The position numbers and the translations under genes are program-made. This document shows positions 34,020 through 56,743 of a stretch of DNA of 64,000 nucleotides, piece by piece. Position 1 is the stretch's first letter. Each line of letters opens with the position of its first letter. Under the pieces are notes generated by a model. The model was not told where the DNA came from. It saw only the letters and a program-made list of their open reading frames with translations, and searched no databases. Source of the DNA: an uncultured Alphaproteobacteria bacterium (GTDB taxonomy: Bacteria; Pseudomonadota; Alphaproteobacteria; JALCBB01); contig OY279575.1 in the NCBI GenBank assembly GCA_958267355.1, positions 41,726-105,725 of the forward strand, written 5' to 3'.

Positions 34020-34169
34020 AGCGGAAGCAGGGTGATTCTGCGGCTTGGCGACAGGAGCAAAACCTTGCAGAATCATACAGACAAACCTGCCCGCCGACTA
34101 GCCCCGCCTGAGTCTGTGGGCTTTGCCTATCCTTGGCTATCCTTGGCGAGTCTTGCTGTTTAAGTAGCC

Positions 34170-34260: not shown

Positions 34261-35556
34261 TTAGCCCTTTGCTTTCGGAGCTGACTTTGCCGCTCCGTTT
34301 TTTGTGCCTGTGCCTGTGTCTGTTCCTGTGCCTGTGTCGGCTGTGTTTGCTGTGTCTGCTCCCCCTGCTCCCCCTGCTTCGGCAGGAGCTTCAGCAACGG
34401 CAATGGGCGTATCTGCGGCTCCGACTGGAGCTTCATCTTCCTTTGCCCCTGTGCTGGCAAGATCGCCGAGCATAGCTTCTTCTAGGGCTCGGGCGTGGGC
34501 ACGGATTTCTTGCTCTAACCGTTGCGCCGCCTGTTGGTTCTGCGCCAAGAACTGGCGGGCGTTTTCGCGCCCTTGTCCGAGTCGTTCGCCTTTGTATGAA
34601 AGCCACGCGCCTGATTTTTCTACCAGCCCTGCGGCGATACCAAGGTCAAGCAGCTCGCCAAGCTTGGAGACTCCCCTGCCGAACATAATATCAAACTCCA
34701 CAGTGCGGAACGGCGGAGCCAGCTTGTTCTTCACCACCTTGACCCGCGTGCGATTGCCGATGAATTCGTCTTTCTCCTTAATGGAGCCAATACGGCGAAT
34801 ATCCAACCGCACCGAAGAGTAAAACTTCAAAGCGTTGCCGCCGCTAGTCGTCTCAGGACTACCAAACATCACGCCGATTTTCATACGAATCTGGTTGATA
34901 AAGATAACCAAACAGTTAGACCGCGAAATCGTAGAAGTAAGCTTACGCAAAGCCTGACTCATCAGACGGGCTTGCGAGCCAGGCAACTGGTCTCCCATTT
35001 CGCCTTCTAGCTCACTCTTAGGCACCAGAGCCGCCACCGAATCGACAACCAGCACATCAATGGCTCCACTGCGCACCAGCGTGTCAGCGATTTCTAGGGC
35101 TTGCTCTCCTGCGTCTGGCTGGGAGACCAACAAGTCCTTCAAATTCACGCCCAACCGCCCCGCATAGATCGGGTCAAGCGCATGCTCGGCATCTACGAAG
35201 GCACAGGCTCCGCCTGCCGCCTGAGCCGCCGCCACAACATGGAGAGCCAAAGTCGTCTTACCCGAAGACTCAGGACCAAAAATCTCCACCACCCTGCCGC
35301 GTGGCAAGCCGCCGACGCCCAACGCCAAGTCAAGTCCAATAGACCCCGTAGGAATCGACTCAATCTGCACCGCCTGACGCTCGCCAAGCCGCATAATTGA
35401 CCCCTTACCAAACGAACGCTCAATCTGCTGTAAGGCAGCATCTAACGCCTTACCCTTCTCGCGGTCGTTGTCCTGCTTGCCATCAGGATTATCGCTATTA
35501 CGCACTGAAGCCTTCACTGCCTTGCCTCCGACTACTTTTAGAGCTGGACTTGCCAT
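34261..35556 (-). CDS. recA: Recombinase RecA with N-terminal extension and a low-complexity C-terminal tail
   Basis: [12 protein letters not shown] Walker A and full RecA core. Tail reads ...[34 protein letters not shown]. Confidence 0.95.
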
Positions 35557-35759
35557 GGTATCTCTCCTTATAGAGCGGGAATTGCCCGCTGACTGCCAAA
35601 AACCGCCGAAAGCTCTGGAAAATGCGAAAATATCCCCCCAGCGGCGTTATATACTACTTATGTTCTCTTTTTGCTCTCTTGTCAAGAACATTTAGCAAAC
35701 TTATTTTTAACGCTATAACCCTTTGAATTAAAGCCCATTCCCCCCGAATCCCCACCACT

Positions 35760-36000
35760 TTTCCACAAGACAGGCAGAACACCCCCTACAGGACAAGCCC
35801 TGCGGGGCAAGCCGCGTATCCCCCGTCTTCGTCTCAAAAATGGGCAGTGGCTCAATTAGCCCCCCCCATTGAAATTATGGGGCGTGGCGGTTTGGCTCAA
35901 TTAGCCCTTCATTGAAACTATGGGGCGTGGCGGTTGGAGGAAGTAATAACGCTTGGCACGAATGCCGCACCGCAAGGTGCCCGCAAGGCGGACGCAAGGT
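35760..36000. repeat. GC-hairpin module tract, inverted relative of parts of 11400-11860, with an internal 44-bp tandem duplication
   Basis: 35893-35975 is the reverse complement of 11455-11537 (ggctcaattag...ggggcgtggcggttggaggaag...cacgaatgccgcaccgcaaggtgcccgc). ggctcaattagcc..attgaaaYtatggggcgtggcggtt occurs twice in tandem. Confidence 0.8.
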
Positions 36001-36001
36001 G

Positions 36002-36931
36002 CTAGGGGGCTTGGGATTTGGGTTTTGGGGGGTAGAGTTTTGGGTTAGGGATATTACCTCCGTCTACATAGATGGAGCTTGGTTCTTTCTTAGGCTTGTC
36101 GGGTTTCTTTTCGTAGGGGTTGCTCCAATCCATGCCGGCGTAGCGGTCTTCGGCTTCTACACGCAGCGCAATCTTCTTCTCGTGTGAAGAACTATTATCT
36201 ATCAAACGGCGGGTAGAACGGTAGTCTTCGGTCTCGCTGTACTCTTTGATATGTTCGTCAGGGGATAGATACGCCTGAGCTCGGTCGATTAGCTCTGCCA
36301 TAGTCGCGTCATCAACGATTTTCTTTCCCGCTACAACTTGTTCTACCAGCTCGCAGAACTGGGTCAGCTCGCGGATCATCTCGGTGCGGCGTATCGCTTC
36401 TTCTCGCCGCAGGTTTCGGCGGGGGGCTATGGTTTGTTTTTTATCAAAGGTTTCAGGCTCTACGAGCTTTCCGCGGGTGCGCATATTCTCTAAGGCTTCA
36501 GTTAGCCTGTTCATCGTCTCGGTCGTAATCTCTTGGTGGTGTTTGCGCTCTTGGTCGGTTAAACCTTCAGGCATAGGATTGAGCCGCAATAACTCTAGGT
36601 TAAACATTATGAGCTGGCGTTCATCGCGTCTTCGTTGGGCGTTAAAAGCCCTGCCTAAAGCCCGTTCCTTGGCGTTGGTTTCGTCTTCTTCCTGTATGGA
36701 GCGTTGGAGGGAAAGCAGGGCTTTAACCTCGTCTTCTAGCTTGTCGTTGAGCTGGGGCAGGAGTTGGGCAAGGTTAGCCCTGCGGACTTCAGCACTTTTG
36801 TCCGCCTGCCCTGCGTAGTGGTTGGCTAGGGATTCCGTCAGCAGTTCGGGGTCAAGGGCGGATAGGTATTGGCGCACTTCCTGCAGCTTGGCGGCTGTCG
36901 TTGGCTGGTCGGCTGGGCGAGTGCTGTGCAT
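36002..36931 (-). CDS. Hypothetical charged/coiled-coil protein
   Basis: 309-aa ORF with no recognisable motif. A C-run leader (ccccaaacccccaacc) lies just upstream of the ATG on the coding strand. Confidence 0.5.
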   Translation of the reverse strand: MHSTRPADQPTTAAKLQEVRQYLSALDPELLTESLANHYAGQADKSAEVRRANLAQLLPQLNDKLEDEVKALLSLQRSIQEEDETNAKERALGRAFNAQRRRDERQLIMFNLELLRLNPMPEGLTDQERKHHQEITTETMNRLTEALENMRTRGKLVEPETFDKKQTIAPRRNLRREEAIRRTEMIRELTQFCELVEQVVAGKKIVDDATMAELIDRAQAYLSPDEHIKEYSETEDYRSTRRLIDNSSSHEKKIALRVEAEDRYAGMDWSNPYEKKPDKPKKEPSSIYVDGGNIPNPKLYPPKPKSQAP

Positions 36932-37099
36932 GGGGTAATCCTTCGGTTGGGGGTTTGGGGGCTAATAGAGTTGCGAAATCTCCTATATAGGAAATGAGCC
37001 ATTTTCAGGCAGATTCAAATTTTTTACGGATTTTTGGGGCAAAAAAAGAGATAAATCGGGCGCAAATCTAGACTCACAGCCAAAAAATAAATTTAAAAA

Positions 37100-37897
37100 T
37101 AAATTTCCTGTGGCCTTCCCACCCATCCCCCCCAAGGTTTGCTTCGCGTCCTACGGACGCTCGCAACCCTTGACCCCCCTTTGCCCTGTGCCTGCCTACG
37201 GCAGACACAGCCCCTAGGGGGGTGTTAATTAGATAGTCCCCCTCTATATACAAAAAAAACAAAAAGAAAAAATGTAGAGAAATAAGGCCTGTTGCCTTCG
37301 CGCCCATAGGGGGGTGGCTAATTAATCAACCGTGTTCTTAAAAATAAAAAAATAAGATTAGTAATGTCTACGATCAATCAGCAAGCTTCGCCACGCGTGC
37401 CCGCTCGGCACTTCGTGCCTTCGCGCCCCTAGGGGGGTGAATTCCCTAATCAGCCCATATTTCTAAAAACTAAAAAAACATAAAGAAAGAAAATAAAAAA
37501 TCTTCGTAGGGTAAATTTTGAAACCTCTACCCACCCATCCCCCCCTAACTTTGCTTCGCAAAGTTAGACCCCCCTTTGCCCTCGCCACACTTCGTGTGGC
37601 TCGCCCCTAGGGGGGTGTTAATTAGATAGTCCCCTCTATATAAAAAAGAAAAACATAGGGAGAGGTAAAGAGAATAAAAGCAGAGAATAAAGACAGCAAA
37701 CCAAAGCGGGCGACTGCCCCCCTGTAAGGGGGGTAGGAGACAGCTTTGGCAGTTAGGGGGGAATATTCTCTACTTTTAAAAAAACGCCCCTGCGGGGCGT
37801 TCCCTCGCGCACTTCGTGCGCGCCCACCCCACCCCCCAAAATTTGCTACGCAAATTTTGACCCCCTCCGTCCCGAGGGGGTAATAGCTCTTGCATTT
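37100..37897. repeat. ~800-bp non-coding array of GC-hairpin modules separated by A-rich spacers
   Basis: cccacccatccccccc-[hairpin]-gaccccc modules at 37118, 37529 and 37823. Palindrome-containing box gcccctaggggggtg at 37211, 37303, 37425 and 37604. A ctaactgccaaagc-type element (reverse orientation) at 37701-37761. Confidence 0.85.
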
Positions 37898-39427
37898 CTA
37901 GGGGATTGTTGTTTTGTCCTCTGCTTTCAACGCGGCCTCCTGTTCTTTTATTTCTCGAAATAGTCTATACGCTCGGATGAGAGAATAAGCCAGAAAAGGA
38001 GACGCAATGAGAACTGTTAGAAGTGCTCCAACGACTGCTCCGATAAAAGCTTCATTAAAAAGCAACACAGAAAATCCGATAAATGCTCCCATAAGAGCCA
38101 TATAGATAATCCAATAGGGAGCTATAATTAGGGTTGCTGTGAGAGTGAAGCCAAGAGGTAATCTAAAGGCACTAGGAAAAGCCCCACGGAGGACTGTGCA
38201 GAAAATTCCTATAAGTGCTCCGACAAAAGACCCGAAAGGGATTCCGTGAAAAGCTTCGAGAAAAGAACCATTGAAGAGAGAGGCAATCAATGCGCCAATG
38301 AAAGCACCAATATAAATTCCAATGAAAGAACCAAAAATAAGTCCAAATACGTTCACTCCCATAATCTTGAGAAAATCAGAAGGAGCGAAAGGAAGAACCA
38401 TAATGGCTCCCGCAAGAGCTCCGATAGTGGCTCCGATTAAAGCTTCAAAAAGAACTTCCGAAAGAACTTCAAGAATAGCTCCAGAAACAGCAAAGATTAA
38501 CACTCCAAAAATAGCTCCAGAGAAAGCCCCAGAAGAAAGTCTAAGGAGAGCTTTATCATCAATGTCATAAATACTATAAGGTCTAAACATTTCAACAAGA
38601 AATCCTATCAAAGCCCCAAAGGGAGCTCCATAGAGAGCTACACGAAAAGCACCTTCAAGACCTCTATCAAGAGCATTCCGATCAAGTCCTAAAGGCAAAG
38701 CCGCATTGAGACTTAAAAAGAGAGCCCCAAAGATAGACCAAAAGATTGCCGAATTTATTATTCCCCTTAAATTCGTTCTATAAAGATAATCAGAGCTGTT
38801 GGCTTTGGTAACGATCCTTTCGATTGCCTCACCAAGAATTCCAAGAATGGCCCCTAGGAAAGCTCCAGTAAGAGTTGCTATTAAAATTCCGATAGGAGCT
38901 CCATTAAAGTTCGCAATAATTATTCCTGAGAGTGCACCGTAGAAAGCCGCTACGATAACTCCAAAAAAAAGATGTAAAAAAGGTTGCGGAAAAGCCTTTT
39001 TAGAAGGGCTCTTGAAAAAATAATCGAAAAGCCAGTAACAAAGCCATGCAGAAATCGCAATAAATATTCCTTTTATAGCTCCAGCAGACGCTCCGAAAAA
39101 AAGCGCAATGAGAATTCCAGAAACAGCCATAAAGATAGCCCCAATAGCTGACGCTGAAAAAATGAAACTAGTGAATGAAGGTTTTTTCTTAGAGGGGTCT
39201 TCGAACTCAATTTCAAAAGCAAAGACAATTCCTACAAAAACACCAAAAATTGCACCCAATGAAGCCCCTAGGGCATACAATCTACGATAATTTTCCCACG
39301 CCTTAAAAATTTCTGTAAAAATCTCTTCTACCCAGTTCGTAGCAAAAATTCCGATGAGCCAATTCGTGATGAAAATTCCAGTAAGAATCCCAGCAATAAT
39401 TCCTCGGAGGATTATCTTGAGGCGCAT
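37898..39427 (-). CDS. Polytopic membrane protein built of reiterated glycine-zipper (GxxxGxxxG) segments
   Basis: Likely start is ATG at 39427 (MRLKIILRGIIAGILTG). Many segments like GAFLGAILGILG, GAPFGALIGFL, GSFIGIYIGAFIGALI and GAFIGAVVGALL. AT-rich. The upstream part of the track ORF is translation of a G/C-run leader. Confidence 0.7.
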   Translation of the reverse strand: MRLKIILRGIIAGILTGIFITNWLIGIFATNWVEEIFTEIFKAWENYRRLYALGASLGAIFGVFVGIVFAFEIEFEDPSKKKPSFTSFIFSASAIGAIFMAVSGILIALFFGASAGAIKGIFIAISAWLCYWLFDYFFKSPSKKAFPQPFLHLFFGVIVAAFYGALSGIIIANFNGAPIGILIATLTGAFLGAILGILGEAIERIVTKANSSDYLYRTNLRGIINSAIFWSIFGALFLSLNAALPLGLDRNALDRGLEGAFRVALYGAPFGALIGFLVEMFRPYSIYDIDDKALLRLSSGAFSGAIFGVLIFAVSGAILEVLSEVLFEALIGATIGALAGAIMVLPFAPSDFLKIMGVNVFGLIFGSFIGIYIGAFIGALIASLFNGSFLEAFHGIPFGSFVGALIGIFCTVLRGAFPSAFRLPLGFTLTATLIIAPYWIIYMALMGAFIGFSVLLFNEAFIGAVVGALLTVLIASPFLAYSLIRAYRLFREIKEQEAALKAEDKTTIP

Positions 39428-39965
39428 TGGTGAAGTCTCCTTGCTTTTGGGGATACTAACAAAAAGCCCGTCTAAACGGGGGATTAGGGTGGCGTTTGGG
39501 GGGGTGGTAGGTGGGGTAGGGGGTTTGGGCGGTCTTTTCGGGGGTTTTGGGCAGGAATTTGGGGGTTGGGGCTTGACATAACCCGTCAAAGGGCTAGGAT
39601 GGCGGGGCTTCCTTTTGGGAGGCTTTAGCGAAAAGCGAAATGAAGCACAGGGGCTGTGGGCCTGCGGGCTGGCTCGCCTCATATGCTTTTTTTGTGTGTT
39701 TTTTGTCGCTTTCGCGCGCGCCAGCTCTTGACCATTGTACATAACGGAGAAGATACGTGGGCAGCGATCTGTAGAGCCGTTGAGTCGTAACACTTTCGGG
39801 TGCGGCGACTTGGCAAAAAATATGGGTCACGCAACGCGTATTTTCGTAAGATTTTTACGCAAATATCACGTTGCTTATGTTGCGGACGGCTTTGTCGTCC
39901 GCAGCGAAGCGAGCGTGACCTGTCAAACGTTTGTTTGCTCGTATCCAACGAGTAAGCCAACAATC

Positions 39966-41468
<1,503 letters not shown>

Positions 41469-41723
41469 GGGGTTGGGTATTCTGGGGTTTGGCTATGCTT
41501 GGGTCTTGACTGACTCGGGCTTGCTTGAGTTTTGATTGACTTGAGCTTTTAGCTTGAACTTTGGCACCTGACTTTAAAGAATTGCTGACTTTGTCTTACT
41601 TGAATGGCTTGGTGCTTTTTACGGAGCACTTGGGTCTTTTTTGTGAGACGAGCGAGGCATAAAAAACCTGCTCGACAGTTCGCTGTCCTCGTACCTTCTC
41701 CGTTGTGCCTACTCAAGACCCCC

Positions 41724-41753
41724 AAAAGCCGCCCCCCAAGGCGGCTTTTCTTT
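41724..41753 (+). terminator. Intrinsic terminator-like hairpin plus T-run downstream of 16S
   Basis: aaaagccgcc-ccccaa-ggcggcttttctttg. Nearly the same hairpin as the one after 5S. Confidence 0.6.
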
Positions 41754-41883
41754 GTCTCGTCGGGGGCAATTTGGCTCTACCCAGTCAAATTGCTGAAAAT
41801 TAGCCAATTTACGCTGAATTTCTGTGTGCAGCCCCTACATATGGGGGTTTAACATTAGAGTGTTAACAAATCAGAAGGGCAAA

Positions 41884-41962
41884 TAAGTAACATTTTTCCT
41901 CCTTTTTGTTACTTAATCTCTTGTAAGTAACATTTATGTTAGTTAAATTCATTTAAGTAACA
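41884..41962 (+). promoter_or_regulatory. Four copies of the 9-mer TAAGTAACA (three direct, one inverted) upstream of the Fic gene; putative operator array
   Basis: Direct copies at 41884-41892, 41925-41933 and 41954-41962. Inverted tgttactta at 41907-41915. Confidence 0.5.
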
Positions 41963-41991
41963 AAAACCACGAAATTCGTTAGTTAGCCAAA

Positions 41992-43176
41992 ATGGACAAA
42001 AAACACAAAAAACAAAGAATTGGGAATTATGTAAGGAGCTCTGCCTCTGACACGGTGAGCTATCTGGCTTACATTCCCAGCCCGCTCCCACCAGACCCGC
42101 CACTGGATATGGCAGATCTTGCTCCTCTTTTAGAGCGAGCCCATATCGCCATCGGGCGCTTGGACAGTATGATCGATCCACTATCAGACTTTTCTTCGGC
42201 TTTGCGCACATACTTTATCCGTAAAGAAGCTGTTTCATCCTCTCAAATTGAAGGCACGCAATCGACCCTCTCTGATGTATTGGTGTATGAAGCAGGTGAC
42301 AAAAAATTAAACACGCCTATTGAGGACGCTATAGAAACTTTACGCTATGTTTATGCTATGGAATATGGATTAAAACGCATAAAAGATATTCCCATATCGC
42401 TACGTTTGATTAGGGAAGTTCATAAAAAATTAATGACTGATACACGTGGTCAAAATAAGCAGCCTGGTGAATTTCGAAAAAGCCAAAACTGGATTGGCGG
42501 GTCAAAACCAAGTAATGCCGATTTTGTGCCGCCGCCACCGAACCATGTGATGGATGGGTTAGATAATCTAGAAAAATTCCTCAATGACGAAAGAACGGAT
42601 CTGCCTGTTTTAGTCAAGGCTGCGATCACGCATGTACAGTTTGAAATTATTCACCCATTTCTTGATGGAAACGGCCGTTTAGGCCGATTGCTTATTATTT
42701 TCATATTGTGTGCGGAAGATATTCTTAAGCAACCTGTTCTAGGTTTAAGTTCATATTTAAAAACCAACCATAAGGGTTATTACAATCATCTCCAATCTGT
42801 TCAGGAAAAGGGCGATTGGGAGGCGTGGATTGAATTTTTCCTAACAGGTGTCATTGAAACAGCTGAACAGGCAATAGAGACTATGCAGGCAATCCGAACA
42901 CTCTTTGCGGCAGATAATGATAAAATAAGCAAACGCGGAAGATCAGCAGCAAGCGTTTTTAAGATACATGCCCACTTGGAAAAATATCCAATGACTACGA
43001 CACGGAAAATAAAAGAAGACACAGGTCTGTCGTTGCCGACTGTCCTGCGCGGATTAGAAACTCTGAAAACTTTAGATATTGTTAAAGAACCTGAAGTCAA
43101 ATCGAGAAACAGGGTCTTCATTTATAAAAAATACCTTTCTCTTCTAAACGAAGGCACAGAGCCTTTGCCAAGGTAG
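41992..43176 (+). CDS. Fic family protein (AMPylase-type) with N-terminal inhibitory motif and C-terminal wHTH-like region
   Basis: HPFLDGNGRLGR Fic motif. SSQIEG matches the (S/T)xxxE(G/N) auto-inhibition helix. Confidence 0.85.
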   Translation: MDKKHKKQRIGNYVRSSASDTVSYLAYIPSPLPPDPPLDMADLAPLLERAHIAIGRLDSMIDPLSDFSSALRTYFIRKEAVSSSQIEGTQSTLSDVLVYEAGDKKLNTPIEDAIETLRYVYAMEYGLKRIKDIPISLRLIREVHKKLMTDTRGQNKQPGEFRKSQNWIGGSKPSNADFVPPPPNHVMDGLDNLEKFLNDERTDLPVLVKAAITHVQFEIIHPFLDGNGRLGRLLIIFILCAEDILKQPVLGLSSYLKTNHKGYYNHLQSVQEKGDWEAWIEFFLTGVIETAEQAIETMQAIRTLFAADNDKISKRGRSAASVFKIHAHLEKYPMTTTRKIKEDTGLSLPTVLRGLETLKTLDIVKEPEVKSRNRVFIYKKYLSLLNEGTEPLPR

Positions 43177-43309
43177 GAGGTGGGGCAGACAAAAGAAAAA
43201 ACCGACACTAGGTGATTTTTGCTATCGATGCGCCAAAATGAACCAAAATGAAAAAGCCCTCCCTTAAGACGATCGGCTTTTTATTTAGCCCCCCAACCCC
43301 CTCGAGCGA

Positions 43310-43482
43310 AGCCCGCGGGGGCGTTTTTTAAGAGTAGAGAATATTTACCCCCCCCTAACTGCCAAAGCTGTCTCCTGCCCCCCCGCGCAGATCGTCTTGC
43401 GTCACGCGGAGCGGATAGCAAGCGAGATGCGCAAAAGTGTTGCGCAAGCGACACGAAAAGGCGGGGCAGTCGCCACCTTTGG
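43310..43482 (+). repeat. ctaactgccaaagc-type hairpin element with an expanded loop, preceded by a terminator-like hairpin
   Basis: Reads gcccgcgggggcgtttttt, then agtagagaatatt..cccccctaactgccaaagctgtctcctgccccccc, then about 78 nt of nested hairpins, then ggggcagtcgccacctttgg. Confidence 0.8.
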
Positions 43483-43601
43483 GGCAAAGTATGGGGGTTA
43501 GGCAGGCGTGAATCGGCTTGATTTCCGCCATTAATTCTACCCTTGCGGGAGGTACATATTTCGTCTTTAATTTAGAACCATTACTACTTTAGGGGGGATA
43601 T

Positions 43602-45947
43602 ATGAAGCAGTTTCTTCTAATTCTATCGGTAACGTTGTCGCTGTTGCTGTCAGCGCAGATGGTTTCTGCTCAAACCGATGAAGAGCCCAAAGAAATTACG
43701 GATGCAGAAGTTGAAGAGGCCAAAGAGTCGTTTAAAGATTTTTTGAAGTCTCTGGAGGATTCCCTGAAAGAAGCTGCTAAGGAAATTGAAGACTCCGAAG
43801 AATTTCAAGAGCTCAAAAAATCTGTCAAGGAGGTAGAAGATACAGAAGAATTTCAAGAGTTGAAAGAAGCCATAAAAAATTATGAAGACGAAGATGATTG
43901 GGACAAGATCAAAGAAGCGGCAAAAAAGCTTGAAGACTCCGACAAGGTGGAGGAGATCAAGGCGCAAGCAAAAGATGTTGAAGATTCTGAAGAGGTTCAA
44001 GGGCTGAAGGAAACGGTTAAGGGTATTGATGACAGCGAGCAGTTTCAAAAACTCAAGCGGGCGGTAAAAAATATTGAAAACTCGCAGGAGCTCCAAGAGT
44101 TAAAAGAAATTGCAAAAAATCTTGAAGACTCCGAGGCATTTCAAGAGCTCAAGGAAGTTGTCAAAAATCTTGAAGACATTGAAGATTTGCCAAGGCTCCA
44201 GCAGGCGATCAAAGATCTTGAAGACGCAGAAGAATTAAAGCAGCTGAAGGCTGCAGCAAAAGATCTCGATGACTCGGCGGAAGTCCAGACGCTGAAAGCG
44301 ACCATCGTTGAGACCGCTAACGAGCTCGGAGACCTTGAAGATCCCTTGCGTGCCACCACCGCCACAACGCAAAGCGCGGCGCAGACTGCAGAATCAACAA
44401 CACAAGAGGCAACAAACCAAGAGGCACAAGAATTTGCGAACCAAGATTCCGATGAGAACACAGAGGAAGACATTTTAGAATTTCTTGATGAAATTGAGTA
44501 CGAAGCAATTTCTAACTTTGTGACTCGTGGAGAATACGAAGCACTCACGACGAAGCAGCGGAAAAAGCTTACACAACTTGCGATTCAAGCGAAATTCTGG
44601 GGTGATAATCCTGAAAAGCTTGCGAAAATTCGTGGGGAATTTTCGGAAATCATAAACTCTGTTGCGGGTGCGCAAGCGGTGGCAGATTCCTCTGAGAAGC
44701 TGACGCTTGAAGATATAGAGGGGCTTTTTTCTCCTGGGGAATTTGAGACTCTTCCAGAGGCGGCGCAGGACAAATTTTTCAATCTTACATTCCGATTGGG
44801 ACTTGTTGAAGAGGACTCTGAAGCGTATCAAAAGATTTTGCGTGAGTTGATAGCTCTTGCGGAGTCTCCTTATGATGCGGCGACTACGGAGATTACAGAT
44901 GAAGACAGGCAAGAATTTGCTGAAGACTTTTTGGGTGCCTTGGGCAGAGAGTTGGGTAGGGGGCTTGGAGAATATTTAGCTTCTCCTGAAGTTCAAGAGA
45001 GTATATTGGCGACTGACGATACCGCTACGGATGATGCGGGCGACACTTCGGAGTCTTCTACGCCTCTTCCTTATACGGAGGGGTATGATTTTTATCCTGA
45101 AGAAGAGGAGTCATCTGACAGTTTAAATTTCTTTTGGGGGTTGATTGCTTTTGTAATAATTTATTTTGTTCCTTCAATTTTTGCGTCTCTGCGGCGGTCG
45201 CGTGCGAGCACGCCGCTTCTTATTGCTAATATTCTTGCGGGCTGGACGATTATTGGTTGGGTGATTTGTCTGTTCTGGGCAGTTTTCTCTGGTCGCGCCC
45301 CGAAAAATGAAACCAAGAATGAAACCAAAAATGAAGCCAAGAATGAAACAAAGGACGAGAAACTTGCACAAAGCGAAAGCAACATAAATCAGATCAACGA
45401 AAAACCTGAAGACAAGAAAGATCGCGGCGAGAAGAGTCAAGATGGGTCTGTTAAAACTGCACGCAAGAAGGGTGCGGTGGCGGAGTTTCTGATTACACTT
45501 CTTATTACTTTGGCTTTATTTTTGGTTGTGTATTCTATATTTTTGCTTGATATTCCAGGATCGATGGGGGATTATTTGTTGAATTATGTGTTGTATGGCG
45601 TGATGTATTTTACGCCGACATTTTTTGCGTATTATAACAAGACAAAAACATGTGGCTGGTTGTTTGTTGTTAACGCTCTTGCGGGTTGGACAATTATTGG
45701 TTGGTTTGTCTGTTTTGCTTGGGCGTTTTTCTCCCATCGCGAGGTGGGAGGCGAGCAAAACGCAGTGGGTAGCCAAGAGCAGCAACACGGATTTCTTTAT
45801 AGCTGGTTGTTTCTTCAAGACCCTGAAGAAATGAAGGAATGGAAAAAAGCGGTGAAAGAATTCATAGATGCTAAAAATGAGGCTATGAATGATGGCGGCG
45901 GAAATGGTAATGGCGGTGGGGGCGGCAATGGCGGCGGTGGCGGTTAA
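43602..45947 (+). CDS. Secreted/membrane protein: signal peptide, ~12 acidic 16-aa repeats, two superinfection-immunity-like TM hairpins, KNET repeats and a Gly/Asn tail
   Basis: MKQFLLILSVTLSLLLSAQMVSAQ. Repeat unit EDSEEFQELKxxVKxx. YFVPSIFASLRR..LAGWTIIGWVICLFWAVF and YFTPTFFAYYNK..LAGWTIIGWFVCFAWAFF. Confidence 0.7.
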   Translation: MKQFLLILSVTLSLLLSAQMVSAQTDEEPKEITDAEVEEAKESFKDFLKSLEDSLKEAAKEIEDSEEFQELKKSVKEVEDTEEFQELKEAIKNYEDEDDWDKIKEAAKKLEDSDKVEEIKAQAKDVEDSEEVQGLKETVKGIDDSEQFQKLKRAVKNIENSQELQELKEIAKNLEDSEAFQELKEVVKNLEDIEDLPRLQQAIKDLEDAEELKQLKAAAKDLDDSAEVQTLKATIVETANELGDLEDPLRATTATTQSAAQTAESTTQEATNQEAQEFANQDSDENTEEDILEFLDEIEYEAISNFVTRGEYEALTTKQRKKLTQLAIQAKFWGDNPEKLAKIRGEFSEIINSVAGAQAVADSSEKLTLEDIEGLFSPGEFETLPEAAQDKFFNLTFRLGLVEEDSEAYQKILRELIALAESPYDAATTEITDEDRQEFAEDFLGALGRELGRGLGEYLASPEVQESILATDDTATDDAGDTSESSTPLPYTEGYDFYPEEEESSDSLNFFWGLIAFVIIYFVPSIFASLRRSRASTPLLIANILAGWTIIGWVICLFWAVFSGRAPKNETKNETKNEAKNETKDEKLAQSESNINQINEKPEDKKDRGEKSQDGSVKTARKKGAVAEFLITLLITLALFLVVYSIFLLDIPGSMGDYLLNYVLYGVMYFTPTFFAYYNKTKTCGWLFVVNALAGWTIIGWFVCFAWAFFSHREVGGEQNAVGSQEQQHGFLYSWLFLQDPEEMKEWKKAVKEFIDAKNEAMNDGGGNGNGGGGGNGGGGG

Positions 45948-46000
45948 TAGAGAAAATGGGTATCTTTCCGCACGGGCGGTTTCTCACGATAAGGAGGGCG

Positions 46001-46930
46001 ATGAAAATGGGGCGTAGAAAATTTTTAAAGTCTTTAAAACGCTCCTTGAAGAAGGCGGCGAAGGAGGTAGAAGACTCGGACGAATTCCAAAAGCTCAAGA
46101 AGTCCGCGAAAGACTTGGAAGACTCAGACGAGTTTCAAGAGTTTAAAGAGACCGCGAAGAATGTTAAGTCCTCCGAGGATTTGAAAAAGCTCAAGCAGGC
46201 GGGCAAAAGGCTTGAAGACTCCGAGGCGGCAGAAGAGTTCAAGCAATCCGCCAAGAATGTAGAAGACTCAGAAGAATTCCAAAACCTAAAAGAAATGGTC
46301 AAAAACATTGAAGACACCCAAGAGTTCAAAGAGCTCAAAAAGACTGCCAAAAATCTACAATATCTCTACGATTTGCAGAGGCTTCAGGCGACGATCAAAG
46401 ATTTTGAAAACACGGCTGAAGTGCGGGGGCTTAGAAGGGCGGTCAAGGATATTAAAGCCACCAAAGAATTCAAGGAGCTTAAAGAAATCGCCAGAAATCT
46501 TAAAAACCTTGACGACTTGCGACGGCTTCGTGATGCTGTCAAAAAGCTTGAAGACTCTGCGGCGGTGCAGAAGCTTAAAGTTGCTGCCAAAAAGGTTGAA
46601 GATTCTGCAGAAGTGCAAAAGCTGAAGCAGGTTGCCAGTCGGGTTGAGGACAGCCAAGAGTTTCAAAAGTTTAAAGCGATTGCCAAAAACCTTGAAAGCT
46701 TTGACGATCTGGAAAAATTACAAGCGGCGGCGAAAACTCTTGAGGACTCTGCTGAGGTCCAGGGGCTTAAGCAGGTGGCGAAAGATATAGAAGACTCCAG
46801 CGAAGTGCAAGAGCTGAAGCAAGCCGCTAAAGATCTTGAAGACTCTGCTGAAGTGCAAGAAATTAAACAGGCTGCGAAAAGCCTTGAAGACTCTGCTGAG
46901 GTGCGAGAGTTGAAAGAAAGAGTGCAGTGA
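46001..46930 (+). CDS. Protein made almost entirely of ~18 copies of the same 16-aa acidic repeat
   Basis: AAGGAGG lies 5 nt upstream of ATG at 46001 (track ORF starts 45956). Repeats read EDSDEFQKLKKSAKDL / EDSAEVQELKQAAKDL and similar. Confidence 0.7.
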   Translation: MKMGRRKFLKSLKRSLKKAAKEVEDSDEFQKLKKSAKDLEDSDEFQEFKETAKNVKSSEDLKKLKQAGKRLEDSEAAEEFKQSAKNVEDSEEFQNLKEMVKNIEDTQEFKELKKTAKNLQYLYDLQRLQATIKDFENTAEVRGLRRAVKDIKATKEFKELKEIARNLKNLDDLRRLRDAVKKLEDSAAVQKLKVAAKKVEDSAEVQKLKQVASRVEDSQEFQKFKAIAKNLESFDDLEKLQAAAKTLEDSAEVQGLKQVAKDIEDSSEVQELKQAAKDLEDSAEVQEIKQAAKSLEDSAEVRELKERVQ

Positions 46931-47032
46931 GAGACGAAAAGTAGTAAAGGCTAGTGTTCGCGAAATTTTTGGTATGTGATATGCTGTATGGCTGTGCTAT
47001 CTTGTGCGGGCACTTTTAGAGAGGATTTTGAG

Positions 47033-47455
47033 ATGAAAGGCACTTTATTGACTTTGCTGTTTTCGGCGTTCCTGCTGGCGGGAGTGGCGGTGCTTACTAC
47101 CTTTGGTTTTACGGCGGCTGAGCCTGTGATGGCGCACGAGGTGCATTTCTCCACTGAAGGAGACGGGCACGGCGGCAGTTGGTCGGTTCGTGTTGATGAG
47201 GGGAAGTGGTCGGGCCACTGGCCGCGCAATAAACCTGTGGTTGCGGTCTTGGTGATGTTTTTTGTGCTGGCGGTCTTTTCGTCGGTGTATTTTTTGCCGA
47301 CTCTGCTGGCTTTCGGACGCAGAATGCACTACCGCGTGCCGCTGTTTGTGGTCAATATCTTTTTCGGCTGGACATTCATCGGCTGGGTCTTCTGCATGGC
47401 CTGGGCATTCTGGCCTGATAGGGACGAGCGCAACGAGAAAGCAGAACAAGGATAA
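47033..47455 (+). CDS. Small membrane protein with a superinfection-immunity-like TM hairpin
   Basis: MKGTLLTLLFSAFLLAGVAVL...YFLPTLLAFGRRMHYRVPLFVVNIFFGWTFIGWVFCMAWAFW. Confidence 0.65.
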   Translation: MKGTLLTLLFSAFLLAGVAVLTTFGFTAAEPVMAHEVHFSTEGDGHGGSWSVRVDEGKWSGHWPRNKPVVAVLVMFFVLAVFSSVYFLPTLLAFGRRMHYRVPLFVVNIFFGWTFIGWVFCMAWAFWPDRDERNEKAEQG

Positions 47456-47563
47456 GTCTTTTCTGCTTTGTAGGCTTTGTAGGGTTATAGATATTTTTCC
47501 TGCAGCGGCGTTTTTTGTATTATACTACCTCTACGAGAAGAGTAGCGGCGGAGCGCGGGACAC

Positions 47564-48004
47564 ATGAAAAAAATGAAAAAAATTGCTATAAAGAGTTCTA
47601 TCTTTGCCTTTTTCCTAACGCTATTGGTGGATCTAATTATCTTTGTTGTTGCGCTTGATGTCCCAAGTAGAATCATGCATTTCTATTCTATTGATGTTAT
47701 AGATTATTCTCTCGAGGTGGCAGATCTAGAAGATTTTGTGCCTCCTGAGCCTGAACCGTATTTTCTGTCTTATCTTAAGAGGGGATTTGTTATTTGCCTT
47801 TTGGTTTTTCTTTACTTTCAGCCGACATTTTTTGCCTATATAAATAAGGTGCGCTCGCGCAGGCGGATACTGCTTGCGAATGTATTTTTGGGCTGGACGA
47901 TTGTCGGCTGGTTTGTCTGTTTTTTCTGGGCTTTTTCGCTCAACCGCGATAGCCGCCCTGACCGCGACAGCGACCAAGCCGCCCCTTCCCCCTCAACTTC
48001 GTAA
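47564..48004 (+). CDS. Small membrane protein with a superinfection-immunity-like TM hairpin
   Basis: YFQPTFFAYINKVRSRRRILLANVFLGWTIVGWFVCFFWAF. Confidence 0.65.
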   Translation: MKKMKKIAIKSSIFAFFLTLLVDLIIFVVALDVPSRIMHFYSIDVIDYSLEVADLEDFVPPEPEPYFLSYLKRGFVICLLVFLYFQPTFFAYINKVRSRRRILLANVFLGWTIVGWFVCFFWAFSLNRDSRPDRDSDQAAPSPSTS

Positions 48005-48076
48005 GGTAGCGGCCACCCTTCACGCCCGCGGTGTTTTTCCTGTATGCTGGGCTTTCTGTGCCTACGCACAAAGGAG

Positions 48077-48153
48077 GGGCCTGTAGCTCAGCTGGTTAGA
48101 GCGCACGCTTGATAAGCGTGAGGTCGGAGGTTCAAGTCCTCCCGGGCCCACCA
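48077..48153 (+). tRNA. tRNA-Ile (anticodon GAU)
   Basis: gggcctgtagctcagctggttagagcgcacgcttGATaagcgtgaggtcggaggttcaagtcctcccgggcccacca. Folds as a cloverleaf by hand, with encoded CCA. Confidence 0.95.
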
Positions 48154-48178
48154 CCGCCACGAGAAGGCAAGTAAAAGG

Positions 48179-50488
48179 TTAGTTAGCAGACTCGGTTGCT
48201 TGTTGGGCGGTTGAGACTTCGGCTTTGGGGCGGAAGGCTTGCCACATGAAGAGGGCGAAGGCGAAGACTCCCCAGGCGAAGACGACATCGCCTGGCACCC
48301 GCAGCCAGACCAGCGTTTCAATCAGCGGACTATGCAACAGCTCGGGCGAGCGGGCGGCTTGGTAGCCATCGCGGATGCTCACCCAAGTTTGAATCAGTCC
48401 TTGCGGAAGCAACGACAAGAAGGTCATCAAAAGCAAGCCGATGTTGAATGACCAGAAGGCTTGTTTGAGAAGGCCGTTGTTCCAGCGGCGCACATCGGTG
48501 AGTCCGCGCATGCAGTACAGGGTCAAGCCGAGTCCGAGCATGCCGTAGACACCGAACAAAGCGGCGTGTCCGTGGTTGGCGGTGGTGTTGAGTCCTTGCA
48601 TGTAGTACAGCGCAATCGGCGGATTAATCAAAAAGCCGAAGACGCCTGCGCCGAGAAAATTCCAGAACAGCACGGCGGCGAAGAACATAAACGGCCAGTA
48701 GTAGGTGTCTTCCCAGTCTAGGCCCGTTGTGTGCTTGCGCCGACTCCAGGCTTCAAAGCCGACGACGAGCAGGGGCACGACTTCTAGTGCTGAAAAAGTC
48801 GCCCCGACAGCAAGCACAGCTGTCGGAGTGCCTGTGAAGTACAAGTGGTGAAAGGTGCCAAGCACTCCGCCGAACAAGAAGATGATGGTGGCGAATAGCA
48901 CCATTACGGTCGCGACCGAAGCCCGCACCAATCCCATACGCACGAAGAGCAACGAGATGATCGCCGTGGCAAAAACTTCAAAGATGCCTTCTACCCAAAG
49001 GTGCACTACCCACCACCGCCAGTATTCGGCGAGGGCGATGTGGGTGTGTTGTCCGTAGAAAAGCCCTGCTCCGTAGAGCAGCCCGATGGCGATGGAAGAC
49101 ACCACCACCAAAAATATCAGCGAGCGGCCGACTTCGGGTTTGGTTAGGGCAGGCCACAAGCCACGCAAGACCAGTCCGAGCCACAAGAGCAAGCCGATAA
49201 ACAGGTAGATCTGCCAAAAACGCCCAAGGTCAATGTATTCGTAGCCTTGGTGTCCGAACCAATAGCTCGCGGTCAGAGACGAGAAAAGCCGATGCACCGC
49301 CGCCCATTCGCCGAAAAACGAACCCACAACAATAAGTAGCAAACTAAAGAACAGAAAGTTTACGCCGAACCGTTGAAACTTCGGCTCTTTGCCGCCGAGT
49401 AACGGCGCAACATACAAGCCACAGGCAAGCCACGCTGTTGCAATCCAAAAGACCGCCAGCTGCGTGTGCCAAGTGCGCGTCACAACATACGGAAAGTATT
49501 CAGCCAAAGGTAAGCCATAGACTCCTTGCCCTTCAACGCCGTAGTGGGCGGTGACAATGCCGCACAAGACCTGCAAGACGAACAAGGCGGCGACGATCCA
49601 AAAGAACTTGGCGGTCGCGCGCATAGACGCAGTCGGCACGACAGACGCGAGTCGGTCTTCTTTTGCGTAACCGTCTTCGGGTTCGCTGTCTTGCCGCCAG
49701 ATGTCAAACTGCTGGGCGTAGTACCAGACGATGGCTCCGATCCCTGCGAGCAGGAGCAAGATGGAAATCAGGCTCCACAACAAAGTCGGAGGAGTCGGCG
49801 TGTTATCAACCAAAGGTTCATGCGGCCAGTTGCTGGTGTAGGTGACTTCCTTGTCAGGACGGTTCGTCGTCGCCCCCCAAGCCGTCCAAAAATAAAACGC
49901 CGACAAGGCGCGGGCTTCGTCAGGCTCTAGATAGGCAAGAGCCGAAAAGGCATATTCTTCACGCAGGTGTTCGGCTTCTGCACTTCCGCCCGTATACAAG
50001 TCTAAGTAGTGCTGCTGAGTCTCGGCAATCGCTTGCGCACGGGCAACAGAAACCGTGATGGTCTTGGTCGCCGCATCGTATTCATTGCGGCGCATTTCTT
50101 TCGCCAGCCGCGCCCGATTGAGCGTATCGGTTTCTTCAGCCGAATTGCCAATACGAAACCTCTGGTTGTAAATGGCAAGCAACGCCGAAGCCTCGCGATG
50201 CAGCCAATCGGCAGACCAATCAGGAGCCAAATATCCGCCGTGCCCCCAAATTGAACCTTGTTGCATGCCGCCGATGGACTGCCAGACGGCTTGTCCGTGC
50301 TGAATATCTTCGCGTGTGTAGATGGTTTCGCCACTCTGCGCCCGCACAACCTCAGGTATAGGCGGAGCTTCACGGTAAATCTCCCGTCCGAGCAGCAGCA
50401 GCACGCTGAACATCACGACCATCCCGACTGCCAGGATGATCCACAAGCGGCGAATAGAAAAAGTGCTTTGATAGGATGCGGTACTCAT
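48179..50488 (-). CDS. norB: Quinol-dependent nitric oxide reductase, single-subunit qNOR type
   Basis: 769 aa: N-terminal TM plus periplasmic extension fused to a 12-TM heme-copper oxidase-like core with conserved His ligands (HLWVEG, HHLYF, HGHAALFG). Confidence 0.8.
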   Translation of the reverse strand: MSTASYQSTFSIRRLWIILAVGMVVMFSVLLLLGREIYREAPPIPEVVRAQSGETIYTREDIQHGQAVWQSIGGMQQGSIWGHGGYLAPDWSADWLHREASALLAIYNQRFRIGNSAEETDTLNRARLAKEMRRNEYDAATKTITVSVARAQAIAETQQHYLDLYTGGSAEAEHLREEYAFSALAYLEPDEARALSAFYFWTAWGATTNRPDKEVTYTSNWPHEPLVDNTPTPPTLLWSLISILLLLAGIGAIVWYYAQQFDIWRQDSEPEDGYAKEDRLASVVPTASMRATAKFFWIVAALFVLQVLCGIVTAHYGVEGQGVYGLPLAEYFPYVVTRTWHTQLAVFWIATAWLACGLYVAPLLGGKEPKFQRFGVNFLFFSLLLIVVGSFFGEWAAVHRLFSSLTASYWFGHQGYEYIDLGRFWQIYLFIGLLLWLGLVLRGLWPALTKPEVGRSLIFLVVVSSIAIGLLYGAGLFYGQHTHIALAEYWRWWVVHLWVEGIFEVFATAIISLLFVRMGLVRASVATVMVLFATIIFLFGGVLGTFHHLYFTGTPTAVLAVGATFSALEVVPLLVVGFEAWSRRKHTTGLDWEDTYYWPFMFFAAVLFWNFLGAGVFGFLINPPIALYYMQGLNTTANHGHAALFGVYGMLGLGLTLYCMRGLTDVRRWNNGLLKQAFWSFNIGLLLMTFLSLLPQGLIQTWVSIRDGYQAARSPELLHSPLIETLVWLRVPGDVVFAWGVFAFALFMWQAFRPKAEVSTAQQATESAN

Positions 50489-50728
50489 AGCTCCTCCTTG
50501 GGGCGTGTGCCCTGCTAAACTGAGTTTTGATGCATTCCCCCATAGTACAACCTCGCCCCACGAACCGCAAACCTGACTGCAAGCCCTACCTTTCTGCTAT
50601 CCTCGGCTGGGCGCACCTAGCCCGATGGTCACGGTGCGACCATTTTTGAGCGTTGCCGTGAGGGTTGGCGTGAGGGTTGTAAGTCCACCGCGTGGCTATA
50701 TGGGCTATTGTGTAGAAGGAGAGATTTC

Positions 50729-50804
50729 GGGGCCGTAGCTCAGCTGGGAGAGCGCCTGCTTTGCAAGCAGGAGGTCAGGGGTTCGAGCCCCCTCGGCTCC
50801 ACCA
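50729..50804 (+). tRNA. tRNA-Ala (anticodon UGC)
   Basis: ggggccgtagctcagctgggagagcgcctgctttGCAagcaggaggtcaggggttcgagccccctcggctccacca. G3:U70 pair present, with encoded CCA. Confidence 0.95.
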
Positions 50805-50881
50805 TTTCATCTTATTTAGAATCATGCTATACTATTGGTTGCATTTAGAAATCCACAAAATCGCCTAAAGCAAGGAGAAAC

Positions 50882-51349
50882 ATGACGGAAAACAGGAATG
50901 AATATAGGCTAACCCAAGAAATTATAGCTCTCTCTAGAGCTTCTGATTGGGATCGTGCGAAGCTTGAATGGATTTTGGAAGGTGTCTATATGGCGGACGA
51001 GCCTGAGACTTGCCTATGTGGCCATTTCCCTATTATCGAGATATGTGGCTTGAGAAATTTATATAACGACAATTATACAGAAGTAGGTAATGTCTGCGTT
51101 AAGAAGTTTTTGGGGTTGCCTTCGGATAAAATTTTTAGATCTGTTAAGAAAGTGCGAAAAGATGAAGAAAAATCATTAAATGCAGAGACGATACAATATG
51201 CTTACAACAAAGGATGGATGAGTATATGGGAGAGAGATTTTAGTATGGATACAATCCGAAAACTAAAGCCGAGTCTTAAACAGCTTGCTAAACGCGTTGA
51301 AATTAACCGAAAAATAATGCGAAATATGAGAAGAGGGGGTGGTAACTAG
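50882..51349 (+). CDS. Hypothetical small Cys-containing protein
   Basis: 155-aa ORF with AGGAGA RBS. Motif CLCGHFPI...GNVCVKKF suggests a metal-binding knuckle. Family not recognised. Confidence 0.5.
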   Translation: MTENRNEYRLTQEIIALSRASDWDRAKLEWILEGVYMADEPETCLCGHFPIIEICGLRNLYNDNYTEVGNVCVKKFLGLPSDKIFRSVKKVRKDEEKSLNAETIQYAYNKGWMSIWERDFSMDTIRKLKPSLKQLAKRVEINRKIMRNMRRGGGN

Positions 51350-51607
51350 AAAGGGTGCGCATAGCCCCAAAAAGTAAGGAATCTCCCTATCAAGCCTGAT
51401 ATAGGGTGGGGGTGGAATTTGGCGAGAATTGGGGGAGGAGCTCTGTATGGGGGGGGAATCCAAGGCTTTTTCGGGCGGGGCAAGCCCGCCGCTCAAAGCC
51501 TTGCTTGTCTCTATATATATTAGGAGAGGGGTTTGAATCCCCTAAAAATTGGCAGATTCGCTGAAGAGGTTGCGAATCGGTCAGTACAAACGGATATTGG
51601 GGGCACT

Positions 51608-53749: not shown

Positions 53750-56499
<2,750 letters not shown>

Positions 56500-56743
56500 T
56501 TTCTTTTTCTCGCGCGCGCGTTTTTGTGTGCGTGAGGTGCATTCACCCGTTCCGCACGGCCTGCCTTGGCAGTCCAAAGCGAAATGGAATGGAAGATGTG
56601 AAATGAAAGATAAAGCGCAAAATCTAAAGCGTGGAAGATAAAGCGTGAAAGATGAAGCGTGGAAGATGAAGCGAAAGCTAGCTATAGAGCGTCCGCTTTT
56701 TTCTTGTGGTCAAACTCTTCTAGTTTTGTGGAGGGATTAGTTG

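Follow-up and report, generated by a model that had tools for sequence, protein, structure and literature searches.

How does a hairpin come to carry further hairpins within its own loop? This question is raised by the intergenic DNA of an uncultured alphaproteobacterium with a genome of ~1.9 Mb, of which a stretch of 64,000 nucleotides (referred to as the window, part of a 1.86-Mb contig of ENA assembly ERZ19433661) was analysed here. Repeats fill the intergenic DNA of this host, and repeat-built regions are found in the window at 11.3-11.9, 35.6-36.0, 36.9-37.9, 43.2-43.6, 59.05 and 61.4 kb as well as at other loci. One of these repeats, which we named F1, is an imperfect palindrome of ~70 nt, and its copy at 43 kb contains two additional hairpins in the place of a short loop. 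An initial annotation of the window had ascribed this copy, and a similarly differing pair of tandem units (T1 and T2) at 11 kb, to an insertion process aimed at hairpin tips; the sequence features named there are present at, or within a few bases of, the positions assigned to them. The comparisons described here show that a two-hairpin module (module M) or single mini-hairpins have been copied repeatedly and stepwise into the unpaired tips of existing hairpins, whereby the host hairpin stays foldable, and that less often such a copy has landed in another unpaired stretch in front of a G-run.

The comparison includes ~49 kb more of the genome to which the window belongs (the extension L002 and the loci L020, L022 and L029), reached via proteins of the window and members of their clusters, as well as the orthologous regions of two sister strains from the same sample, s103 (1.87 Mb) and s104 (1.90 Mb). 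The DNA covered amounts to ~6% of one genome, which applies to all negative results on genes and on free modules given below. The three strains are mutually equidistant, with 98-99% identity over four coding genes, and the nearest relatives of the RecA protein of the window are Rhodospirillales/Kiloniellales-like proteins and entries named "MAG: Alphaproteobacteria". Independent assemblies of the same sample contain the window sequence identically, and the repeats are therefore no assembly artefact. Alternative contigs of the window strain are 100% identical to the window, and no polymorphism was found in them.

F1 has the form CCCCCCTAACTG-CCAAAGC-TGTCTC(C/G)-TGCCCCCCC-TTACA-GGGGGGGCA-GTCGCCC-GCTTTGG, with conserved arms, an internal loop of 7x7 nt and a variable tip. 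In the predicted fold, an outer stem of 6-7 bp is followed by the inner stem TGCCCC/GGGGCA and by a tip that measures 5 to 75 nt, and only the left strand has a bulge, TG(C). The left arm occurs four times in the window (0.74 expected); besides the four sites in the window, the further 49 kb contain five and the sister strains have additional ones, at least 12 in all, and all copies lie between open reading frames (ORFs). The tip is either of variant A (CCC-TTACA-GGG), B (CGTGC-TGGAC-GCACG) or C (CGCGC-TAAA-GCGCG), a 75-nt filler, or minimal; one compensated pair distinguishes B from C and is the sole covariation within F1 itself. The family consensus is without fillers. A search with the left arm gave one match in the GTDB representative genomes and eight in JGI metagenomes, all of them chance matches in unrelated sequence, so that the family seems to be confined to the host lineage. 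The F1 copies of the window and the parts of the filled one are as follows.

59055-59119, plus strand: short F1 with tip A (CCC-TTACA-GGG), directly 3' of the Eco47II restriction-modification gene pair
37697-37761, minus strand: short F1 with tip A; 37693-37762 with slightly wider bounds
43349-43482, plus strand: filled F1 with conserved arms CCCCCCCTAACTGCCAAAGCTGTCTCCTGCCCCCCC ... GGCGGGGCAGTCGCCACCTTTGG and replaced tip; the same filled form is present in the sister strains
43385-43459, plus strand: filler of the 43349 copy, 75 nt in the place of the TTACA loop
43311-43348, plus strand: leader common to the F1 copy at 37.7 kb, a terminator-like hairpin GCCCGCGGGGGCG with T-run, followed by AAGAGTAGAGAATATTTA
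11327-11362, plus strand: minimal F1, ccaaagc-TGGCTC-gccttgg, without the apical GC stem

The enlargement of the 43-kb loop by nested hairpins, as originally noticed, is borne out. The filler comprises a long imperfect hairpin (43385-43432), AAAA, a second hairpin gtgttgc-GCAA-gcgacac (43437-43454) and GAAAA, from which we infer the architecture of module M in another sequence. The filled form occupies the 43-kb site in all three strains, among which no empty allele exists, and a second filled locus is found in s103 beside a strain-specific MT-A70/MunI island. A difference between the strains is present at the F1 copy ~0.4 kb past the window end, where the window strain and s104 have an extra hairpin in the internal loop that is missing in s103 and in all other F1 copies and is therefore derived.

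The direction of change can be read at the T units, which differ from each other in the way that short and filled F1 do, one having a GTA loop and the other a 56-nt filler.

11361-11447, plus strand: tandem unit T1; its simple hairpin, gtgccc-GTA-gggcac, spans 11419-11433
11552-11695, plus strand: tandem unit T2, with the same stem, gtgcccc-[56 nt]-ggggcac, at 11611-11678, the loop being replaced by M1
11617-11672, plus strand: M1, a copy of module M, cgcgtggc-GAAGCTTGCCGA-gccacgc, CAA, gcgtcc-GTTA-ggacgc, ACAAAAAAG
37381-37397, minus strand: truncated first hairpin of M, 17 nt, 100% identical

At the place of the filled unit, s103 contains a single T unit with plain gtgccc-GTA-gggcac, followed by the sequence that follows T2 in the window. 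As both T1 and the single unit of s103 are plain, the filled state of T2 is therefore derived, and by this alignment the filled T2 loop is a real insertion. The proposal that the long forms are derived rather than ancestral thus holds where a polarity can be given, and the short forms have perfect stems with the canonical C(GNA)G loop. Presence and absence among strains, which had been suggested as a further test, is seen at T2 and at the extra hairpin past the window end, but not at the 43-kb site.

Module M consists of two hairpins in 55-75 nt with an A-run at the end and is generally built as [stem-GAAGCTTGCCGA-stem]-AAAA-[6-bp stem, GCAA loop]-GTAAAAAAG. M1 shares its opening 27 nt (CGCGTGGCGAAGCTTGCCGAGCCACGC) at 100% identity with L002 6684-6710, ~0.45 kb past the window end, and with three sites of L020 (880, 9480 and related), and the whole two-hairpin module recurs elsewhere with covarying stems. 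That the nested pieces are repeated elsewhere is therefore true of M1, but not of the 43-kb filler, which a short-word BLAST search of the DNA covered found only within whole filled F1 copies. M is present inside three different hairpin loops. Elsewhere it occupies the unpaired spacer of a third type of repeat, the U units, which read GGGCA-[M]-AAGCTGGGGTC with M and GGGCAAAGGGGGGTC without it; M is thereby present or absent within an otherwise conserved spacer (GGGCA^AAGGGGGGTC). The orientation of M is constant relative to the G-rich strand. The invariant 12-nt loop GAAGCTTGCCGA (11625-11636 in the window, and other copies) holds the self-complementary AAGCTT, by which two folded copies could pair loop to loop.

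The U units are built as CACCCCCCTAGGGGCG-[hairpin B]-GAG(C)GGGCAAAGGGGGGTC-[hairpin A]-GGGGGGGATGGGTGGG and are arrayed upstream of a multicopy gene for a protein of 309 aa. Their arrays are mosaics of the type CACCCCCCTAGGGGCG-[hp]-GAGGGCAAAGGGGGGTC-[hp]-GGGGGGGATGGGTGGG (hp, hairpin) with varying hairpin combinations, and in U as in T units G-run and C-run motifs bound "slots" for short GC hairpins, including mini-hairpins of 11-17 nt with C(GNA)G or C(GCAA)G loops. The slot of hairpin A (hpA) provides a third pair of simple and nested forms in the window, which the initial annotation had not named, as well as a three-level form in L022.

37546-37566, minus strand: simple hpA occupant, taactttgc-GAA-gcaaagtta; also delimited as 37545-37567, ctaactttgc-TTC-gcaaagttag
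37127-37179, minus strand: two-level nest, aagggttgc-GA[gcgtcc-GTA-ggacgc]GAA-gcaaacctt, as hpA occupant of a U unit, with an identical copy at L020 690-742
L022 6164-6264 and 6588-6688: three-level nest, M in the loop of the gcgtcc mini-hairpin, which itself lies in the loop of hairpin A

The hpA occupants are graded in length, with 19, 21 and 22-23 nt for simple, 33, 35 and 39 nt for two-level and 87 nt for three-level forms. The stepwise growth that the initial annotation had supposed is well supported by this series of one, two and three levels in one slot. Altogether there are at least six apparently independent nesting events with up to three levels, and predicted folds agree with the nests described. 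Hairpins within hairpin loops are in ~14-fold excess over shuffled sequence: with an outer stem of at least 8 bp, seven were observed in 113 kb, and 100 local shuffles gave 0.49 on average and never more than 2. The same count with outer stems from 6 bp upwards did not discriminate (12 versus 7.5 expected), and the cut-off was then raised to 8 bp. Simple hairpins whose stem has 7 bp or more are ~4-fold enriched in the same 113 kb (65 versus 17 in shuffles). Among the loops, C(GNA)G or its complement accounts for 38 of ~57 triloops and C(GCAA)G or its complement for 15 of ~35 tetraloops; GCGAAGC is a classic, very stable DNA mini-hairpin.

The junctions of the three events that involve an M-type module (T2, 43 kb and the three-level nest) were searched for target-site signatures. 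No target-site duplication was found at any of them, nor a direct repeat beside M or the 43-kb filler, and the loop bases are replaced rather than split: GTA by C...G in T2, TTACA at 43 kb and GTAGGA in the three-level nest. Only the gcgtcc mini-hairpin looks cleanly inserted, into a GAA loop, where a 2-nt repeat (GA) is ambiguous. The left junctions are clear-cut, and three of the targets share the flank GAG(C/T)G..C^; right junctions always join the A-run of the module to a G-run. Moreover, the right arm is damaged in two of the three M-filled forms, from GGACGC to GCCGC in hpA and from GGGGGGG to GGCGGGG in F1, and is intact in T2. Judged from these junctions, insertion with collateral damage is far likelier than repeated precise deletion that each time regenerates a perfect canonical hairpin. 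The shared left flank and the G-run on the right suggest that sequence or microhomology, rather than shape, is what the process follows. Since M also occurs in the unpaired U-unit spacer (GGGCA^AAGGGGGG), the target is not strictly a hairpin tip; it is an unpaired position before a G-run, which here is usually the tip of a C-run/G-run hairpin. Of the claimed targeting of tips, the repeated insertion into loops thus remains, and the restriction to loops does not. The preference for tips could equally be due to microhomology at C-run/G-run borders or to tolerance of tip changes.

The pairing itself is maintained while the stems change. Among seven simple occupants of the hpA slot, which were chosen by their flanks and not by pairing, eight of nine pairs are changed on both sides, and all 63 cells are Watson-Crick pairs (63/63) with no G-T pair. 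In the M stems, five of 13 pairs are changed on both sides, while the 12-nt and the 4-nt loops are invariant, and two neighbouring copies of M (L020 9472 versus 9702) differ in four stem pairs and in none of ~54 unpaired positions. As the stems covary with Watson-Crick pairing kept, the fold matters. The complete lack of G-T pairs and the types of loops point to folded DNA rather than RNA, and the fold could be required by a protein acting on hairpin DNA or for a role at the borders of gene cassettes.

What kind of process could write such modules into unpaired DNA? We favour copy-choice, i.e., replicative template switching on single-stranded DNA, and give it about an even chance of being the way by which the additions arise. 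Synthesis would stall at an extruded, very stable hairpin, the nascent end would re-anneal on another repeat via microhomology of G- or C-runs, the module would be copied, and synthesis would then switch back to the original template. A clean left junction, a ragged right junction at the G-run, lost loop bases and the lack of a target-site duplication would be explained by copy-choice. Only insertions at tips or in unpaired stretches would survive, because the host hairpin must still be able to fold. Several points weigh against this explanation and against the insertions on which it is built. Copy-choice is deduced from junction anatomy only, and no event has a known donor; hairpin extrusion and stalling are themselves steps that we infer. 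The 43-kb filler was not found as a free module in the ~6% of the genome covered and, being identical in three strains, is old. Gene conversion from an already filled paralogue could have given the T2 state without a new insertion, and the left flank shared by the M targets could point to a sequence-specific enzyme. Finally, plain template switching does not explain why stems change while the adjacent unpaired bases do not.

A dedicated enzyme that moves the modules is the first alternative and is unlikely in our view. Here M and the mini-hairpins would be ultra-small, non-autonomous elements, inserted at a short motif exposed in single-stranded loops by a single-strand-DNA transposase (TnpA of the IS200/IS605 type or the REP-associated RAYT) or by a tyrosine recombinase that reads folds. 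The anatomy of M fits this, as it has a hairpin at each end, neither terminal inverted repeats nor a target duplication, a constant orientation and a left flank GAG(C/T)G..C^ common to three independent targets; likewise, stable-DNA C(GNA)G loops and covariation restricted to Watson-Crick pairs would suit recognition as folded DNA. PATEs, which are miniature elements derived from IS200/IS605, also have a hairpin near each end and no inverted terminal repeats or target duplication, and insert via single-stranded DNA at a site defined by its left flank. M shares the terminal hairpins and the lack of inverted repeats and duplications with them, but the PATEs described so far are larger, a conserved tetranucleotide for cleavage was not identified here, and loop bases are replaced rather than kept. 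The lost loop bases and ragged right junctions are also unlike the precise insertion of IS200/IS605 elements, and the motif of the GTAG type lies in the loops and not at the foot of the hairpin. No Y1 transposase (TnpA included), RAYT or integrase domain was found by Pfam in the window ORFs of at least 150 aa and in the domain lists of the ~200 kb of loci, which cover ~6% of one genome.

REPINs consist of two inverted, conserved REP 16-25-mers and a spacer that needs only to pair and frequently shows compensatory changes, and their pattern of conserved ends and covarying spacer is the same as seen here (PMC3116915). F1 has conserved arms and a variable tip as well, but is a single palindrome rather than two REP hairpins, and the same Pfam search yielded no Y1_Tnp match that would correspond to a REPIN/RAYT pair. 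In kind, the repeats are intergenic mosaic palindromic repeats like REP/BIME of E. coli, RIME of Rhizobium and REPINs, with which they share short GC-rich intergenic palindromes in many strain-variable copies and, with REP/BIME/RIME, the combination of palindromes and conserved non-palindromic motifs in mosaics and tandem arrays. They differ from all of these in sequence, in having many stems per slot instead of one conserved REP, in nesting to three levels and in their G-run/C-run delimiters. From MITEs they are set apart by the lack of a target-site duplication. A two-hairpin module that lands in tips, slots with hypervariable perfect hairpins delimited by G- and C-runs, three-level nesting and a position at the borders of defence cassettes are, taken together, unusual.

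The second alternative is growth in place by quasi-palindrome correction, snap-back synthesis or small tandem or inverted duplications without any import of foreign sequence, which we regard as quite improbable as a general explanation. It does fit single cases: the extra hairpin past the window end matches the right arm of its own F1 copy (TCGtCCCGCTTTG versus TCGCCCGCTTTG; CGGGGCGTC versus CGGGGCAGTC) and nothing elsewhere, so that this one gain resembles a duplication of the own right arm, and the hairpin at L008 9487-9511 resembles a short hairpin plus its own reverse complement. Perfect palindromes free of G-T pairs are also what arm-to-arm templated correction should produce. Quasi-palindrome template-switch mutagenesis in the Ripley model makes or perfects palindromes with perfect Watson-Crick stems, by point or cluster mutations. 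However, M1 shares 27 identical bases with distant copies, so that at least this filler was imported, and the inner stems consist of GC only, are unrelated to the AT-containing outer stems and cannot be local copies of them. Organelle genomes of fungi and algae harbour mobile clusters of GC-rich hairpins, by which short GC hairpins are inserted into spacers richer in AT as well as within one another. Neither these clusters nor a process of the Ripley type is known to import a repeated two-hairpin module into hairpin tips of a bacterial chromosome.

In their behaviour, the repeats described here are, as far as the comparison goes, closest to the nested small dispersed repeats (SDRs) of Nostoc. 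In the account attributed to Elhai and colleagues (2008, Genome Res 18:1484), the SDRs of Nostoc punctiforme are said to be hairpin-forming repeats of 21-27 nt, which resemble each other in structure more than in sequence and have undergone compensatory changes; they are reportedly nested in other repeats and in their own copies at precise positions of a short host motif, and an RNA-mediated movement is said to have been proposed. The likeness is one of behaviour only, i.e., repeats of tens of nucleotides with a shared fold, compensatory changes and nesting. The sequences are unrelated and of cyanobacteria, the modules here have 11-75 nt, and their Watson-Crick-only pairing and stable-DNA loops point to DNA; insertion specifically into hairpin loops is not known as a defining trait of SDRs. 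Of the repeats SDR1-8 of Nostoc punctiforme, SDR5 is reported to occur in HIP1 (PMC4390886).

A more far-reaching idea, which we put forward only as a long shot, is that the hairpins are substrates of an undescribed DNA machinery that reads structure, that modules of 11-75 nt are written into their single-stranded tips, and that F1 elements would be attC-like sites of a dispersed cassette system without a platform, which shuffles defence genes among strains. The variable F1 tip would then be the analogue of the variable terminal structure of attC, and the nests would be traces left by folded DNA recombining time and again. F1 has the size of an integron attC site and, like it, an outer stem, an unpaired central region (7x7), an inner stem and a bulge on one strand (PMC5027507). 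The terminal structure of attC varies from a few nucleotides to a long branched fold, as the F1 tip does from 5 to 75 nt, and F1 elements stand 3' of co-oriented, mostly defence-type ORFs at borders of strain-variable gene sets. The F1 ends CCCTAAC ... GTTTGGG resemble the attC end boxes RYYYAAC / GTTRRRY, within which the triplet AAC/GTT is conserved (PMC5027507); however, AAC is not kept in F1, as about half of the sites have TAAC for a left end and the others TAAG, CAAT, CAAC or CCAC, and the right end GTTTGGG has T where attC needs a purine. Furthermore, F1 elements are scattered among housekeeping genes instead of being arrayed behind an attI site, and no Phage_integrase match was found in any locus covered.

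It is very unlikely that the long forms are ancestral and the short ones arose by deletion, or that an old structured RNA diverged slowly with compensatory changes and without any insertion. In favour of such views, the filled form at 43 kb is old and has stayed stable in all three strains, loss of the tip between GTCTCG and GTCGCC could have turned an F1 into the minimal form at 11327, slippage can delete between stem arms, and GCAA and CTTG tetraloops are typical RNA motifs. Against them, T1, s103 and the hpA slot would each have needed a precise deletion of their own that restored a perfect stem with C(GTA)G loop, the fillers are absent from the F1 consensus, stems differ where AT-rich spacers are ~90% identical and M loops are identical, G-U pairs are absent, which is unusual for covariation at the RNA level, and there is no Rfam match even at relaxed thresholds. 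In these searches, Rfam 15 at the gathering threshold gave rRNA and tRNA only, and at E<=1 over 35.5-44 kb nothing but one below-threshold match inside the 16S gene. A scan for consensus promoters and terminators gave counts near the shuffle expectation and was uninformative.

The sister strains also differ in F1 tips and in the genes next to them. At the 59-kb site, which lies downstream of phoX, the window strain has an F1 with tip A, and s103 and s104 have tip B in the orthologous copy; this difference between copies is a swap between F1 variants, and with equal distances among the three strains it could not be polarised. In s103 another hairpin stands where the window has the pair at 11849-11888, and none of the indels between the window and s104 over 17 kb lies in a hairpin. 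F1 elements, which are dispersed among recA, rRNA, norB, phoX and other housekeeping genes, coincide exactly with the limits of gene sets that are strain-specific: gene content takes three different forms beside the 59-kb copy and between recA and 16S, and a breakpoint lies at the C-run end of the F1 copy past the window end. F1 is located 3' of, and co-oriented with, nine of 12 neighbouring ORFs, most of which belong to defence (Eco47II and MmeI restriction systems, Fic, AAA ATPases).

The gap between recA and 16S (window 35556-39966; L008 9250-10000; L024 3454-8300) differs in all three strains and contains in the window the 309-aa gene, a U array, F1 and a gene for a glycine-zipper protein of 509 aa, in s104 repeats only, and in s103 an HNH nuclease, a cytosine methylase and two small ORFs. 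The cumulative GC skew has its minimum near 34-36 kb (recA to 16S), which could mark a replication origin or just reflect gene orientation. The rRNA operon is split by protein genes (window 39966-56859), which differ between the sister strains. Its first part consists of 16S (39966-41466), Fic (41992-43176), the genes for a repeat protein of 781 aa and for superinfection immunity, and tRNA-Ile (48077); then norB on the opposite strand (48179-50488), tRNA-Ala (50729), a DNA methylase, 23S (53748-56505) and 5S (56745) follow. Within it, at 43602-46930, two adjacent ORFs of 781 and 324 aa consist of tandem units of 48 nt (16 aa) with a high content of Glu, Asp and Lys, and the larger ORF has two superinfection-immunity domains; the lengths of the two vary strongly between strains (781 aa versus 47-69 aa plus ~307 aa).

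The 309-aa family is present in the window (36002-36931, minus strand), at 10001-10930 of L020, L022 and L029 and at 19744-20673 of L022. It has 59 members with at least 90% identity across strains, homologues only in the host lineage, and each gene copy is preceded by a U-type hairpin array, usually after defence genes (MmeI, GmrSD, Fic, AAA ATPase). The protein was considered as a candidate mobilising enzyme and rejected as an obvious one: it has no match in Pfam, NCBIfam or PDB sequences, and the AlphaFold model (pLDDT 71) is all-helical with a helix of 75 residues and not obviously that of an enzyme.

Further hairpin groups of the window show the same style of construction.

61388-61490, plus strand: row of four hairpins, accccctc-GGGACG-gagggggt, cgcgttgcc-GAA-ggcaacgcg, cgcacttgcc-GCA-ggcaagtgcg and gcgccc-GCAA-gggcgc
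37783-37881, minus strand: row of four hairpins with G/C-run separators, of the same architecture as 61388-61490, with three of four stems differing
11722-11888, plus strand: two M-like pairs, gctcgcg-CTTG-cgcgagc AAAA gcaccc-GCAA-gggtgc GTAAA and ttgccc-AGCG-gggcaa AAGT gtgtcc-GCAA-gggcac GTAAAAAG, the second being the pair at 11849-11888

With its loops of 1-2 nt, the conserved slot border GGGGGGGATGGGTGGG (and GGGGGGTGGGGTGGG) corresponds to a textbook G-quadruplex motif and is present at 37115-37130, 37527-37542 and 37819-37835 of the window (C-rich on the plus strand) and in the U units of L020 and L022; it adjoins the variable hairpins, where it could stall replication. Another family of repeats, AT-rich and ~134-170 nt long, is represented by three copies with 82-98% identity at 19994-20409 and 24012-24181; it contains AAAAAGCTGCTTTGCAATTGTCC motifs, which are also found as 25-nt tandem repeats at 7974-8342. 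Within coding DNA, alanyl-tRNA synthetase (30576-34076, minus strand; 1166 aa) has a TPR block between the editing and DHHA1 domains, the 102-nt units of which match a separate TPR protein at 1520-3025 (minus strand). AlaS of s103 has 914 aa and no TPR matches, so that an in-frame repeat insertion in the essential alaS gene appears to be polymorphic among strains of 98% identity.

How very short repeats such as REP, SDRs and similar elements spread and change is still unsettled. The repeats described here provide useful material for this question, namely a hairpin loop that gained a defined 56-nt module by an insertion of known polarity, a series from one to three levels in a single slot, and co-occurring strains of 98-99% identity in which tips have been swapped, gained and replaced. 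Long-read population data from one sample could catch such events and would then separate copy-choice from an enzyme-driven insertion. As the elements lie at the borders of strain-specific defence segments, some of which split the rRNA operon, those of the F1 type may therefore mark, or even cause, hotspots of gene exchange in this small genome of a probably host-associated bacterium.

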